Notes under the pieces: generated by a model
Database searches by the model: none
Told to the model about the DNA's origin: nothing
What the model saw: the letters and a program-made list of their open reading frames with translations, nothing else
Program-made: the position numbers and the translations under genes
NCBI GenBank assembly: GCA_015486015.1
Contig: WFSL01000014.1
Location: forward strand, 7,650 to 71,649
Length of the DNA: 64,000 nt
Direction: 5' to 3'
Source of the DNA: Aquificota bacterium
GTDB lineage: Bacteria; Thermosulfidibacterota; Thermosulfidibacteria; Thermosulfidibacterales; B14-G1
In this document: positions 51,174 through 57,509 of the stretch, in pieces
How the letters are laid out: each line of letters opens with the position of its first letter
How positions within the stretch are numbered: position 1 is the stretch's first letter

Positions 51174-51202
51174 TTGACAAAAAGCATAAAGTCTTTTAGT
51201 TT
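51174..51202 (+). promoter_or_regulatory. Putative strong sigma70 promoter of the CoA-transferase operon
   Basis: TTGACA-17 nt-TAGTTT in an AT-rich ~530-bp intergenic region. Confidence 0.65.
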
Positions 51203-51256
51203 TGATCTCACCAGAGGGGAGTTATCCTCGAGATCAGCCATGAAAGGGGGTGATAG

Positions 51257-51334
51257 ATGGTTGGGATAAGAGAAAGGTTTTTTGGGGAACTGCGTGTAGG
51301 TGTTGGGCAATACTACTTTGATGAGGGAGGTTAG
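51257..51334 (+). CDS. Possible 25-aa leader peptide [25 protein letters not shown]
   Basis: SD-like AAAGGGGGTGA just upstream of ATG; stop 4 nt before the next ATG; too short for the ORF track. Confidence 0.35.
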
Positions 51335-51338
51335 AGAA

Positions 51339-52892
51339 ATGGCAGAAGAAATAAAGCTTACACTCCCACCCGAGGCAGAATACAGGCATAGGCCGAGGAA
51401 GGTGCAGGAGGTGAAGGAGATCGAGATCAACTCCAGGGAAGACACCTTGGATCTCAACCATCCTGACGTGAGACCCTGGCCTGTCACACCTGCCCCTTCG
51501 CCGGACTGGGTGATGGAAAATCTTTATAAGCCTAGACATGCCGAGGAGTTTGGAAAGTGGTGCGAGGACAACCTGCGTAAGGACTATGCCCACCTGAAAC
51601 CCGAGGCCCTGCAGGGGTACAGGGTTTTGGAGGTGGGCACATGGAAGGAGAGCGGCCCCTTTGCCTGTTCCCTGCTGGCGGAGCTGGGGGCCGAGGTGAT
51701 CAAGGTGGAGCCCCCGGGGGGCGATCCCTTGAGGAAGCTCACCCCCTTCGGCAGGGAGGAGTACATGCTGAAGGATACCTATACGGGGGAGCCCTGCGGC
51801 TTGGCCTTCATCCATGAGTGCCGCAACAAGTACTCCATCACCCTCAATCTGGATACTGAGGAAGGCCAGGAGATGTTCAAGGGCCTGGCGGCCAGTGCAG
51901 ATGTCATTGTGGAGTACTATCCCCCTGGGTACATGGATGAGAGGGGGTTGAGCTACAGGTATCTGTCCAAGATCAATCCCAGGCTGGTCTATGCCTGGAC
52001 GGGCGAGGTAGGCCAGTGGGGACCCTGGAAGGATGAGGTCTCCAAGTTTGGTCAGCCCATGCTGGACCCCTTCGGGATGGTGGCCTGCTCCTGGGTCCAC
52101 AATACGGGATTCCCACCTGACCTGCTCCCCAGGGAGATGGGTGGTAACCCCACCAGGTCTGGACCCTGGTTTGCCGACTTCACCGCAGGCGAGCAGGTGG
52201 CAGTGAGTGTCCTGGCGGCCCTGTACTGGAGGGACGAGTTCAGCGGAGAGGGCCAGTTCATTGAGGTCACCTCCGCCGAGGCCCTCATGGACATCCTGGA
52301 CTTCGACATCACCTGGTACGGCTTCAACGCCAGCATAAAGGCCAGAACGGGTTCCTGGGACCCCAACCTGAACCAGTATGCCTGGAACCCCTGCAGGGAT
52401 GGGTACATGATGATCGGGGGTCAGACCGACAGGCTCTGGTATAGGATCGGGATGTGCATCGAGAGGGACTATCCAGAGTTTGGCAGGCTCATCGGTGAGG
52501 ATCCCCTGCTCAAGGAGATGGGGGCCAGGAACGCCTTGGAGGCCCTCACCAAGACCTATACCCTCACCACCAGGTGGCTCAGAAATATCTGCCGGTACGA
52601 GGCGGAGCAGAAGCTCTTGGAGTACGAGGTGGCAGCAGGACCCGTGCTCTTCATTGACGAGGTTTCGGAGTTCCCCCACTTCAAGTACCGCCCCTGGGTT
52701 GACACCATTGAGGACGAGCACTACGGGACCATACTCTTTTCCTACCCGCCAGATGGCTACCAGATGAGGACCCCCGCCAGGGTGAAGTGGCTGGGGCGGC
52801 CCCTGGGCAAGGATAACTACGAGATCTATATGAAGTATCTGGGCATAGATCAGTGGAAACTGAGAGAACTTGAGGAGAAGGGGGTAGTGTGA
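51339..52892 (+). CDS. Family III (CaiB/BaiF) CoA-transferase subunit A with N-terminal extension
   Basis: [61 protein letters not shown]. Confidence 0.9.
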
Positions 52893-54334
52893 TGTTGATC
52901 AAACAGGGGAAAAAGGGATTGGATAAGAAGTTTGAGAGGATACCATTAGAGGATCAGCCTGGGCCAAAGAGCCAGGAGGAAATGGATGAGATGAAGATGC
53001 CCTATGAGGAGTACTGCCGCAAGGTCTTCGATGTGGGCAACGAGTTTGTGAAGCCCACAGCCCTCAAGGGCATCAGGTGGCTCAGCACCACCATGTATAT
53101 CTTCACTCCCCACTCTGTCACCAACCTGGCGGAGCTGGGGGCAGAGGTGATCAAGATCGAGATGCCCAGGATGGGAGACCCCATGCGCCATACGTCTCCC
53201 TTCAACGAGGCGTATGTCTATCCCCTCCACGACACCAGGCCCATGACGGGTACCGGGGTGGCATGTTTCAACGCCAACGTGAACGAGTACTACATTAGCA
53301 TGGACTACCACAGGGAGGAGATCAAGGAGGCCTTCTACACCCTGGTGAGGATGTCCGATGGGCTCACCCAGTGCTACAGGCCTGGGACATTCGACAGGTG
53401 GAAGCAGAGCTACAGGTATCTCCAGGAGATCAACCCCAGGTTCATCTCCGTGTGGGGTGGCGGGTTCGGATACGGCCCAAAGATCTGGGGAGGCTCCTAC
53501 GACATCCTGGGACAGGCCCATGCCGGCCTGGCCAGCATCACCGGCTTCCACGAGGACTTTGGAGGCCACCCCACCAAGAGCACAAACTGGAACATCGACT
53601 GGTACTCTGGCACCCAGATCACCGTGGCCATTCTGGCCGCCCTGCTCTGGAGGAGGAAGACAGGTCTGGGCACCAAGATCGAATTCTCCCAGGTGCAGGC
53701 CTCCACCAGGTGCTTGGAGTACGGCGTTCCTCTGTACGGCAGGTTCGGCATCGTCCGCCAGCGTTGGGGCAACTGGGATACCCAGCTCTGTGTGCACGGC
53801 ATCATTATATGCGGCAAGTCCGACTATCCCAATGATAAGAACCCACAGCTCAGAGATGAGGCCAGGTACGTGATGGTGAGTGCCTTCAACGACCCCGACT
53901 TCAAGGAGCTGTGCAACGTGATCAAGAGGCCCGATCTATATGAAAAGTACAAGACCCACAAGCAGAGGGTGGAGGCAGAGGCCCAGGTGGAGATCTACCA
54001 CGAGCTGGAGAAGTGGGCCGCCGACAAGAGCCGATCTGAGGTAACCAGGATCCTGAAGGACGCAGGACTCTTAGCCATGCCTGTCTATAACGACAAGGAG
54101 GTTTACGAGTCTCCCCACTTCAGGCAGAGGGGTACTGTCCGGTGGCAGGCCGATCCCTGGTACGGAGATGCCGTGGTCCATAGCACCTACTCTGCTGGTC
54201 TTATGTCCAAGACCCCCAGGCGGAAGTTCTGGGATCTCAGGCCTGTGGGCGGCGACAACGTGAAGATCTACCACGAGTTGCTGGGCATTCCTTTGAGCAC
54301 CATCAAGGAATGGTACGAGAAGACCATCATATAG
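52889..54334 (+). CDS. Family III CoA-transferase subunit B with N-terminal extension
   Basis: [56 protein letters not shown] coupling with subunit A. Confidence 0.88.
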
Positions 54335-55852: not shown

Positions 55853-55874
55853 CCCCGCCCGATTGACATTACCG

Positions 55875-55901
55875 GCTCCCTCTCCGTATAGGAGGGGGAG
55901 C
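55875..55901 (+). terminator. Hairpin after the 143-aa gene (possible terminator)
   Basis: GCTCCCTCTCC-GTATA-GGAGGGGGAGC then ATTTC. Confidence 0.5.
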
Positions 55902-55936
55902 ATTTCTATGATATCCCTACGAGGAGACAACACCTT

Positions 55937-57127
55937 ATGGAGAAGAGAGAAGGAAAAGAGATAAAGGAGGGTAACTGGAACCCCCTGTCTGCTGTCTTGG
56001 GTGTGTCCCATCCCTTCTTCGAAAAATGCCTGTTCCTGGAGGGCTACGACATATCGTCCAATATCTATGTGGTGGTGGGGGACTACTTGAGCATCATAGA
56101 TCCGGGCAACGACTACACTGCCTTCATCCAGCTCTTCGAGCTGGGGTACAAGCCCACGGACATCAAGAAGATCCTTATCACTCATGGCCACCCGGAGCAT
56201 GCCATGGGCGCCTTAGAGCTCTTCAGGTACCCCAGCATTGCAGAAACCAAGCAACTGGAGATCCTCATGAGTGATGCGGGGCCAGAGTCCTTCAGAAAGC
56301 TGGTGACAGATTTTGGCTGCACATTGACCGATGTAAAGGACGGTGACACCATTGACCTCGGCGGTTTCGAAGTAAAGGTGGTTCACACCCCAGGCCATAC
56401 CATGGACAGTCTCTGTTTTTACCATGCACCCACAAAGGCCATCTTCACAGGGGACACTGTGATGCCTTATGCCGTTGCCACACCAGACGAGATAGCAGGG
56501 GGAAGGGCAGACTACTATCTCCTCTCGTTGAAAGTCCTGATGGGGATGGAAATAGATCACCTGCTTCCTGGGCATGGGATGCCTGTGGCCCATGAGGCCC
56601 AAAAAGTACTGGAAGGCTCATACGCTGGTGCCATTAAGAGGATCATTGGCCTGAGCACCCCCTGGCTGGAGGGGGCAGGAGAGCTGGCCAAGAAGGGGTA
56701 TCTGGCAGAGGCCGCATTCTGCTGTGATATGGAGCTGAAGGAAGACTCCAAGAACCTGAAGGCATTAGAGTTGAAGGCCTCATGCCTTAGCGACATGGGC
56801 CGGTTTGAGGAGGCATACGACCTCTTTGACAGGCTCAGTAAAGAGATAGGGGACTACACCTTCGCCATCCTGGGAAAGGGTTACTCCCTCATGGGGATGG
56901 GCAAATACAGGGAAGCCATGATCCTATTTAACAGGGTGCTCAAAAGGAACCCTGCAAACAAGACCGCAAAGATATACAAAGGTATGGCCCTCTATCTCTC
57001 GGGTAGAAAGGAAGAGGCCTTAAAGATAAAGGAGTTTAAGGCTGGGCTGGTAGAGAAGCTTAAGAGGGAGATGGAAAAGAGGGCCAGGATCCCGAAGGAG
57101 GGTGGCAGAGACGATGCCGTGGTATGA
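55937..57127 (+). CDS. MBL-fold metallo-hydrolase with C-terminal TPR repeats (paralogue 2)
   Basis: SSNIY, THGHPEH, TPGHT, TGD, PGHG; TPR tail. Confidence 0.87.
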   Translation: MEKREGKEIKEGNWNPLSAVLGVSHPFFEKCLFLEGYDISSNIYVVVGDYLSIIDPGNDYTAFIQLFELGYKPTDIKKILITHGHPEHAMGALELFRYPSIAETKQLEILMSDAGPESFRKLVTDFGCTLTDVKDGDTIDLGGFEVKVVHTPGHTMDSLCFYHAPTKAIFTGDTVMPYAVATPDEIAGGRADYYLLSLKVLMGMEIDHLLPGHGMPVAHEAQKVLEGSYAGAIKRIIGLSTPWLEGAGELAKKGYLAEAAFCCDMELKEDSKNLKALELKASCLSDMGRFEEAYDLFDRLSKEIGDYTFAILGKGYSLMGMGKYREAMILFNRVLKRNPANKTAKIYKGMALYLSGRKEEALKIKEFKAGLVEKLKREMEKRARIPKEGGRDDAVV

Positions 57128-57509
57128 AAAGATGGAGTTCTATTACAGCAGCTCCGTGTCACCAGATGAGAGGTATCCATGCAATATTGAAGGGGCCATC
57201 AAGGGGATAGAGATGCTGGCAGGAAAGGGGCTGGATGCCAAGGCGATAGACGTGGAGGAACTAAGGGACGCATTCAGGGCGTACCATAAGGCACTCTCGA
57301 TCGCCGACCCTGACAGGCACTCCGTCTTCTCAAAGGTGAGAGGGGACTACAGAGATCTCTTTGGCAGGGCCATACCAGCGTTACTATGCTATGAGAAGGC
57401 CAATGATAGGGTACCAAGCGAGGTCTTCCCCAGGGAAGAAGAGGGCAGGCTGATAACGGTAAACGAGGCCTTAGAGAGATTCCTGAAAGGGCACGGGGAA
57501 CATGGATAG
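57114..57509 (+). CDS. Uncharacterised protein
   Basis: ~131-aa ORF overlapping the previous stop; YPCN and IPALLCYE..VFPR segments. Confidence 0.65.
   Translation: MPWYEKMEFYYSSSVSPDERYPCNIEGAIKGIEMLAGKGLDAKAIDVEELRDAFRAYHKALSIADPDRHSVFSKVRGDYRDLFGRAIPALLCYEKANDRVPSEVFPREEEGRLITVNEALERFLKGHGEHG

Follow-up and report, generated by a model that had tools for sequence, protein, structure and literature searches.

The window analysed here, a stretch of 64,000 nucleotides (nt) from an Aquificota bacterium (contig WFSL01000014.1), carries an operon of eight open reading frames (ORFs), named A to H below, in which two genes of the family III CoA-transferases are followed by small genes and by one for an MBL-TPR (metallo-beta-lactamase, tetratricopeptide repeat) protein. 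All eight lie on the + strand between 51339 and 57509 (from 51300 if the upstream start of A is used), are tightly spaced, and have Shine-Dalgarno sites, with a GGAGG-like sequence upstream of every start (Table 1). An earlier sequence-only reading of this DNA had described them as tightly coupled same-strand ORFs with good ribosome-binding sites, and this was confirmed for the whole set. The A to B coupling that it read from GTGATG is likewise present, as a 4-nt overlap in GTGATGA with the stop codon TGA inside. Gaps of 13–15 nt each separate B from C, C from D and D from E, while E and F overlap by 17 nt and G and H by 26 nt. Only the F–G gap is longer, at 84 nt, and it contains the hairpin that had been placed before the MBL-TPR gene, a GC-rich stem of 11 base pairs; it is possibly a partial terminator, with a tail that is not T-rich. 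The most likely start of A is the ATG at 51339, because the closest homologues begin there and the ribosome-binding site is best there.

Transcription signals upstream of A are less distinct. The "consensus promoter" of the sequence-only reading survives in part: the -35 hexamer TTGACA is perfect, but the -10 hexamer TAGTTT matches at only 3 of 6 positions, and a promoter scan of the window did not list the site. A riboswitch was sought in the 500-nt gap upstream of A and none was found, the sole Rfam match having an E-value of 0.76, and the leader folds no better than shuffled sequences (z -0.14). There is also no sigma-54-like motif before A in the window, in contrast to many loci labelled Desulfobacterota, the best score being 7/11 against the sigma-54 consensus.

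Table 1. Features of the operon and its flanks in the window
Feature	Position	Strand	Description
Promoter-like site	51174-51202	+	-35 TTGACA at 51174-51179, 17-nt spacer, -10 TAGTTT
A	51339-52892	+	Family III CoA-transferase, A-type subunit, 517 amino acids (aa); alternative start GTG 51300 gives 530 aa
B	52889-54334	+	Family III CoA-transferase, B-type subunit, 481 aa
C	54348-54839	+	163 aa, Cys-rich
D	54855-55115	+	86 aa, probable metal site
E	55129-55437	+	102 aa; type-1 operons only
F	55421-55852	+	143 aa, predicted beta-barrel; type-1 operons only
Hairpin in F–G gap	55875-55901	+	11 pairs, GC-rich (terminator-like scan)
G	55937-57127	+	396 aa, MBL fold with C-terminal TPR repeats
H	57102-57509	+	135 aa; 131 aa from ATG 57114

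Both large subunits are clearly members of family III, matching PF02515 over nearly its entire length (cut-off 23.3 bits): A scores 233.9 bits over model positions 1-365 of 366, and B scores 221.3 bits over positions 1-361. The N-terminal extensions claimed for both proteins are real, because the PF02515 domain begins only at residue 104 of the 530-aa ORF of A (91 of the 517-aa form) and at residue 59 of B. The extension of A is conserved and includes RPWP, and that of B carries an invariant Cys43. As the sequence-only reading held, each protein also retains the family's Asp: D280 of A is invariant in 18 orthologues and D237 of B in 17, and each lines up with the Asp of the solved enzymes of family III, which we take to be the catalytic residue that forms the acyl-aspartyl anhydride. 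The xGP and RNK(R/Y)S motifs in the N-terminal part of family III proteins have a role in CoA binding. A keeps both, as SGP and RNKYS, like the solved enzymes, whereas B of type 1 (the operon type of the window, defined below) has FTP in place of xGP and VNEYY in place of RNK, and also contains a conserved insertion. The divergence of B noted earlier was thus upheld by comparison with both A and the solved enzymes.

Neither protein could be placed within any characterised clade open to comparison, so the sequence-only reading was not refuted on this count. Their best solved relatives are formyl-CoA transferase 10uh for A (E 2.8e-29) and YfdW 1pt5 for B (E 3.5e-22), in both cases at about 30% identity or less, and the chains of BbsEF match more weakly still (A against 9fn0_A, E 1.6e-20; B against 9fn0_B, E 5.9e-19). 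With the NCBIfam equivalog models for mesaconate, formyl-CoA, glutarate, oxalate and carnitine transferases, A reached at most 141 (cut-off 700) and B at most 129.8 (cut-off 504.2). Among the sequences compared, a set without PhtSa/Sb, the two proteins therefore lie far below family cut-offs and distant from their relatives in the Protein Data Bank (PDB). When a tree was built that included the paralogues from this genome, A and B each formed a clade on a separate stem about 1.0 long, apart from the other pairs of the genome, and the inner branches of the two clades are short and broadly congruent. Mean column identity is 76% for A and 81% for B across record labels from several phyla. All 1314 plasmid records matching A do so at less than 60% identity (28.9–33.3% among the 25 matches listed), so there is no sign of plasmid carriage.

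The host genome (1.62 Mb, 96.75% complete) contains ten PF02515 genes. Three more heteromeric family III pairs occur in it, arranged with the B-like gene before the A-like gene, and none has partners resembling C to F. These extra pairs lie at C14:103885-109394 (L089), where four genes stand in a row, and at C36:61890-64481 (L090). One of them belongs to a bbs-like operon that also holds CCG/FAD-oxidase genes and genes for an acyl-CoA dehydrogenase, a ChsH2/DUF35 protein and a thiolase.

The strongest evidence that the small genes belong with A and B is their co-occurrence. C was scanned in one genome per species, yielding 182 stretches and thus at least 182 species that encode it, and the best 80 of these stretches were analysed as type-1 loci; all counts of co-occurrence take only loci whose contig has room for the gene in question. 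The order A-B-C-D-E-F is the same in 80/80 loci (tblastn, blastp), and since these come from several phyla, its recurrence is far beyond chance. A is present in 62/62 loci, B in 69/69, D in 78/78 and F in 76/76. The prediction that the small ORFs accompany the transferases in other genomes therefore stands without exception for these four genes and in 71/77 cases for E. H occurs in 5 of the 80 loci, and G is frequent but dispensable (48/61). Both E and G are missing from five loci of Desulfobacterales type (L065, L068, L076, L077 and L082).

By record label, 52 of the type-1 loci are of Desulfobacterota type, 8 are Aquificota/Aquificales, 6 are of Acidobacteriota type, 2 are Anaerolineales, and 2 belong to Ammonifex and Desulfovirgula. 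Thermosulfidibacter, Margulisiibacteriota, Sulfurifustaceae, Deferrimicrobia and "Proteobacteria" contribute one locus each, and 5 loci are unlabelled. Sulfate reducers, syntrophs, Acidobacteriota and Chloroflexota are all represented among the record labels, and Archaeoglobi among the protein names; every carrier that bears a name is an anaerobe. Cultured carriers include Desulfovirgula thermocuniculi, Desulfacinum infernum, D. hydrothermale, Desulfosoma caldarium and Thermodesulforhabdus norvegica, and Geoglobus ahangari has a divergent, type-1-like C. In the window's own thermophilic phylum, where genomes measure 1.2–2.0 Mb, C is a core gene and not part of a sporadic catabolic island, because it is found in 16/18 genomes and in 10/10 of the high-quality ones. 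The named members among the matches listed are all "hypothetical protein", and neither the database names nor the literature searched, supplements not covered, describes the operon.

A second, more distant form of the operon helps to define what is essential. When the C profile was run against 1.84 billion representatives, it matched only 62 clusters, including a tier of relatives of 125–140 aa. A metagenome scan with these shorter relatives gave 243 stretches, of which 80 were analysed, and they revealed a type-2 order of A'-B'-C'-D'-H'-AMP-ligase. Identities to the window proteins are 44–49% for A', 44–52% for B', 31–38% for C' and 36–43% for H', and A' and B' score about 300 bits against PF02515. 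Presence was 39/39 for A', 50/54 for B', 60/60 for H' and 46/46 for the AMP-ligase. The two operon types share WPxxP and FCR N-termini, the difference between RNK in one transferase and NE(Y/L) in the other, the B insertion, and the Asp at the catalytic position of both transferases. Type-2 carriers include, by name, metagenome-assembled genomes of Thermoanaerobaculia, Terriglobales and Nitrospinota.

In 45/60 type-2 loci, C' and H' are separated by a D-like CxxC..C..C segment, and many loci have D' and H' joined in one polypeptide. Such D–H fusions match the D profile at their N-terminus, in an alignment that covers all four Cys (hhalign probability 81.9%, E 1.1e-5). By these comparisons the universal core is A-B-C-D, because type-2 operons keep A', B', C' and D' without E or F, which are confined to type 1. 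The six-protein core of the sequence-only reading has to be reduced accordingly. Its treatment of H as a trailing unknown also needs revision: with H' in 60/60 type-2 loci and sometimes fused to D', H is an ancestral part of the system and no stray ORF. The lineage of the window stands out by combining E, F and H with A-B-C-D.

None of the small proteins C, D, E, F and H matches any Pfam or NCBIfam family, and PDB profile searches with all five gave nothing below E 0.1. C has 109 homologues at 46–91% identity, some of them named from Syntrophobacteraceae, Desulfosoma, Archaeoglobus and a Thermoplasmata archaeon. Alignment columns across phyla average 66% identity for C and 60% for D. In C, residues C17, C37 and C40 are invariant, C7 and C96 are almost so, and the spacing of Cys7/17/37/40 in our reading resembles a four-Cys zinc ribbon. 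The AlphaFold2 model of C (predicted local distance difference test score, pLDDT, 72.7) has a folded beta domain over residues 1-97, for which fold searches found no match (Foldseek E above 1; best VIA-align Z 3.3). It is followed by a conserved Arg/Pro-rich stretch, 99-142, that falls below pLDDT 50 and is disordered in the single-chain model. A tail that is conserved yet disordered alone is what would be expected of a partner-binding segment. A search for fused, longer forms of C found none, a result we rate as weak evidence.

D had been called a four-Cys protein; the window copy has five Cys, and the invariant residues do include four (C35, C38, C59 and C79), together with H33. They probably form a metal site. 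E has invariant W19, Y23, P50, F69 and C73, and F has 26 invariant columns, Cys10 among them. The AlphaFold2 model of F (pLDDT 85.9) is a predicted beta-barrel that aligns with 2glw (PhS018) over 87 of 92 residues (VIA-align Z 7.6, below 8; root-mean-square deviation 2.8) and with 2d9r (PG0164) at Z 6.4, the next match being 4.4. Foldseek also ranks 2glw at the top (probability 0.99, E 0.058). PhS018 and PG0164 are duplicated swapped-hairpin, AbrB-like barrels. A Protein Atlas search with F returned its own clusters only, along with an AbrB/MazE lead at 0.76.

H carries the conserved motifs EFYYSS..PC(D/N) and PALL. These suggested a thioredoxin or glutaredoxin fold (EFYYSS..PC..PALL), an assignment that remains conjectural, as H showed no Pfam match at E 0.01 and no PDB-profile or Protein Atlas match that could be used; the glutaredoxin model PF00462 itself has zero matches in the whole genome.

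G was correctly recognised as an MBL-TPR protein, with 76.4 bits to PF00753 in addition to matches to TPR families. Its nearest named family is glyoxalase II, although the 53.5 bits to TIGR03413 fall below the cut-off of 200.8, outside GloB proper. Across homologues, T82, H83, H85, H154 and D173 are invariant and H88 and H213 nearly so; the window protein reads HGHPEH, so that Glu replaces the Asp of HxHxDH, with the metal ligands otherwise conserved. A second MBL-TPR protein is encoded just upstream of the operon, where its gene and that of a GCD14-type tRNA methyltransferase (PF08704) overlap by 8 nt and together span 49042-50803 (+). This MBL-TPR protein is 326 aa long, has a canonical HxHxDH and is 28% identical to G. 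The same pair is kept upstream of the operon in L011, L023 and L064, and L009 begins inside the MBL gene. At L012:2013-3617, in a close relative, G and H read as one 534-aa ORF, which is either a fusion or a stop codon missed in the assembly.

As proposed earlier, none of the usual catabolic partners adjoins the transferases: glycyl-radical, UbiD and beta-oxidation genes were found neither in the window nor among the recurrent neighbours of the 80 type-1 loci. The contact between the transferases and the small proteins was approached by structure prediction for B with C. The median score was 0.59, against 0.00 for the best control, with a verdict of "weak support"; in the benchmark, the mark was reached by 58/80 solved complexes and by 2/110 mismatched pairs, and scores of 0.60 or less were seen for only 7/80 solved complexes. 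Contact agreement between runs was at least 42%, and the pLDDT of the partner was at least 71. Given the strict synteny and the translational coupling, this prediction would lend mild support to a complex.

Taken together, these results point to a heterodimeric A/B CoA-transferase with obligate small, Cys-rich and probably metal-binding subunits, a reading that in our judgement has about an even chance of being right. The identities of the genes, their invariant residues, their strict co-occurrence and order and their translational coupling are direct findings; from these we infer the physical complex, the binding of metal, the transferase activity and the role of G. The core would be a heterodimer of two anciently diverged family III paralogues, in which A supplies the canonical site and B a remodelled one. 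The likeliest chemistry is that of the family: the Asp would form an acyl-aspartyl anhydride while CoA is exchanged between acyl-CoA and free carboxylate, and the transferase could in this way keep an organic acid at the level of the CoA thioester in an anaerobic pathway. The constant ligase of type 2 fits this reading, as it matches the cai and bbu pattern in which a ligase primes and a transferase cycles. C and D, which accompany every A/B-type pair of this clade and are joined by E and F in type 1 or by H in type 2 (and by H also in the window's lineage), would contribute structure or bind metal within the active complex. For G, probable roles are hydrolysis of a thioester product or by-product, or docking to the complex. 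The multi-subunit, CoA-dependent complex with Zn/Fe-S (zinc or iron–sulfur) proteins put forward in the sequence-only reading is supported in part, by the strict co-occurrence; no Fe-S motif was shown, and the Cys patterns fit zinc equally well.

Several observations weigh against this heterodimer with obligate subunits. No recognisable partner catabolic enzyme that would point to a pathway is consistently adjacent to the type-1 operon in the 80 loci. In type 2, the dedicated ligase would make a transferase not strictly necessary for activation. Because B has lost RNK, one of the two A/B sites may bind CoA unusually. The predicted fold of F, which resembles an AbrB-like barrel, and zinc ribbons are also found in nucleic-acid-binding proteins, and the sole complex prediction is weak and concerns B with C, without A. 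Moreover, the core could instead isomerise or otherwise transform an acyl-CoA.

This last point leads to an alternative that we consider unlikely, in which A/B is an acyl-CoA isomerase, racemase or intramolecular CoA-transferase that acts between an AMP-ligase and a thioesterase. A succession of ligase, family III racemase and thioesterase is known from 2-arylpropionate inversion, and the proposed route resembles the intramolecular CoA-transferases Mct and ThnP. Intramolecular transferases are described as members of family III (PMC9813914, PMC11659651). The AMP-ligase directly after the core in 46/46 type-2 loci would suit such a route, as would the 4HBT hot-dog thioesterase downstream in 11 type-2 loci, the glyoxalase-II-like G that follows in 48/61 type-1 loci, and the presence of racemases in the family, alpha-methylacyl-CoA racemase being among the PDB matches of A. 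However, an AMP-ligase lies within 10 kb in only 3/80 type-1 loci, the thioesterase is confined to a minority of type-2 loci, and the need for several Cys-rich subunits would be left unexplained.

Two further alternatives concern the small proteins. It is decidedly unlikely, in our estimate, that they are the catalytic heart of the enzyme. In that case the His and four Cys of D and the single invariant Cys of C, E, F or H would bind a metal or Fe-S centre, or act as protein thiols, for redox, lyase or dehydratase chemistry on the acyl-CoA that A/B holds. The invariant Cys/His sets of C, D, E, F and H, the D–H fusion proteins, the uniformly anaerobic named carriers, the lack of a separate transforming enzyme conserved beside the core and the resemblance to FldABC are all consistent with that idea. 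Against them stand the absence of a canonical ferredoxin or radical-SAM Cys motif and of any flavin, ATPase or electron-transfer partner conserved in the operon, Cys spacings that suit structural zinc equally, and an H that matches neither the glutaredoxin model nor anything else. Quite improbable, finally, is the proposal that C to F and H are co-transcribed regulators, chaperones or assembly factors beside an ordinary BbsEF-like heterodimer, with F, for instance, as an AbrB-like DNA binder and C and D as zinc-finger proteins. In its favour, the structures nearest to F are AbrB-like barrels, zinc ribbons often serve to bind nucleic acids, and loci labelled Desulfobacterota show elaborate regulation (a sigma-54 activator in 31, a CheY-like gene in 26). 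Yet a fixed order, translational coupling, 60–66% column identity and presence in 76–78 of 76–78 loci are rare for regulators, the genome's three other heteromeric family III pairs do without such partners, and the complex prediction, in which B with C scored 0.59 and controls 0.00, would argue the other way, weak as its support is.

Comparison with known systems sets the operon apart in its composition. BbsEF (PDB 9fn0) is also encoded by two adjacent paralogous PF02515 genes whose products both have the catalytic Asp, and A matches its chain A better and B its chain B. Nonetheless, A and B are no closer to BbsEF than to formyl-CoA transferases, which does not indicate orthology, and the bbs-like operon of this genome, a separate one, includes another pair. 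The window system differs from BbsEF in its conserved N-terminal extensions of about 40–90 aa, in a B that lacks RNK and has an insertion, in its obligate small Cys-rich partners, and in having no beta-oxidation, glycyl-radical or UbiD neighbours. Another heteromeric family III CoA-transferase, PhtSa/Sb, acts on phthalate. Frc and YfdW, which are homodimers without accessory subunits, represent the best solved relatives of A (10uh) and B (1pt5), and their Asp aligns; however, the NCBIfam frc model gives A and B only 113–130 bits against a cut-off of 504, and no oxalyl-CoA decarboxylase gene lies near the window operon.

In the cai and bbu systems, an AMP-ligase primes the pathway and a family III transferase recycles CoA. 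Type 2 resembles them in having an AMP-ligase beside family III transferases (46/46), but the window system lacks an acyl-CoA dehydrogenase or hydratase partner and has the small Cys-rich subunits, and the CaiB model gives A and B 67–69 bits against a cut-off of 413. Phenyllactate dehydratase, FldABC, is an Fe-S enzyme complex of anaerobes that includes a family III transferase; FldB and FldC, its large subunits of the 2-hydroxyacyl-CoA dehydratase kind, depend on an activator that uses ATP. Neither dehydratase subunits nor an activator are seen in the window operon, where C, D, E and F have no Pfam match. The DUF35 zinc-ribbon/OB protein is a scaffold of thiolase complexes, in BbsAB and in archaeal thiolase/HMG-CoA synthase, and C shares with it the character of a small zinc-ribbon-like protein encoded beside CoA-thioester enzymes. 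C matches neither the zf-ChsH2 nor the OB_ChsH2_C Pfam model, however, and shows no OB-fold match.

What is known, then, is that the large subunits belong to family III; what is new is the subunit composition and possibly the chemistry. To our knowledge, family III CoA-transferases are regarded as self-sufficient homo- or heterodimers, in contrast to this deeply conserved clade, which always comes with two to four small proteins of no family. It is possible, if somewhat unlikely, that the operon encodes an unrecognised class of anaerobic CoA-thioester metalloenzyme, in which A/B, with one canonical and one remodelled site, would be the scaffold that holds the acyl-CoA, and the small Cys/His subunits a metal or thiol centre with new chemistry on the bound thioester. 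If so, this would be a core metabolic enzyme of a small-genome thermophilic phylum and not a niche catabolic one. Identifying the substrate would supply a missing piece of anaerobic carbon metabolism and could reveal a new way to build a CoA-dependent enzyme. Cultured carriers exist in Desulfacinum, Desulfosoma, Thermodesulforhabdus, Desulfovirgula and Geoglobus, so direct testing is feasible.

The wider neighbourhoods differ between lineages. A PAS-PAS-sigma54-AAA-HTH activator is encoded directly upstream of A in 31/80 type-1 loci, and a TGGCA-N7-TTG(T/A)A motif occurs 190–300 nt upstream of A in type-1 loci; scores of at least 9/11 against the sigma-54 consensus were reached in 22/56 loci versus 14/197 random windows. 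The window locus has neither the activator nor the motif. A 140-aa CheY-like pseudo-receiver is encoded downstream of the operon in the 26 Desulfobacterota-labelled type-1 loci mentioned above (e.g., L071:13192-13617), with invariant VACPxC and LLCD motifs and 25.1 bits to Response_reg, below the cut-off of 30.2. It was considered as a diverged H and rejected, as the alignment showed an unrelated pseudo-receiver. A Liv-type ABC transporter is divergently encoded upstream in L051 and L040, with one of its permease genes in L028. The AMP-ligase gene is about 9.5 kb upstream in L051 and lies downstream on the opposite strand in L060 and L069.

Recurrent neighbours of type 2 are Peptidase_U32 pairs (16 loci), a PAS protein (16), an alpha/beta hydrolase (14), the 4HBT thioesterase already mentioned and an MFS transporter (10). 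At L144:555-3881, an Amidohydro_2 gene stands alongside paired Peptidase_U32 genes. The Peptidase_U32 family includes O2-independent hydroxylases such as UbiU/UbiV, and the occurrence of these pairs and of Amidohydro_2 near type 2 hints at anaerobic aromatic-acid metabolism.

Other genes around the operons can be noted briefly. Ten loci, which represent at least two lineages, have a gene for a GNAT acetyltransferase of about 200 aa next to the operon, divergent and upstream in L016, L022, L023, L046 and L064, upstream of the activator in L068, L076, L077 and L082, and downstream in L019. In the window itself, the interval 47750-48247 (+) holds a 165-aa ORF made of repeated RIDETNKR / IDETNQKVDAIHMDLIH units, which looks coiled-coil-like and has only sub-threshold Pfam matches. 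On the opposite strand at 57513-59065 (-), convergent to H, an Amidoligase_2 gene (PF12224) shares 4 nt with the gene of a glutamine amidotransferase of class II (PF13230), and this pair is kept downstream of the operon in L009-L012.

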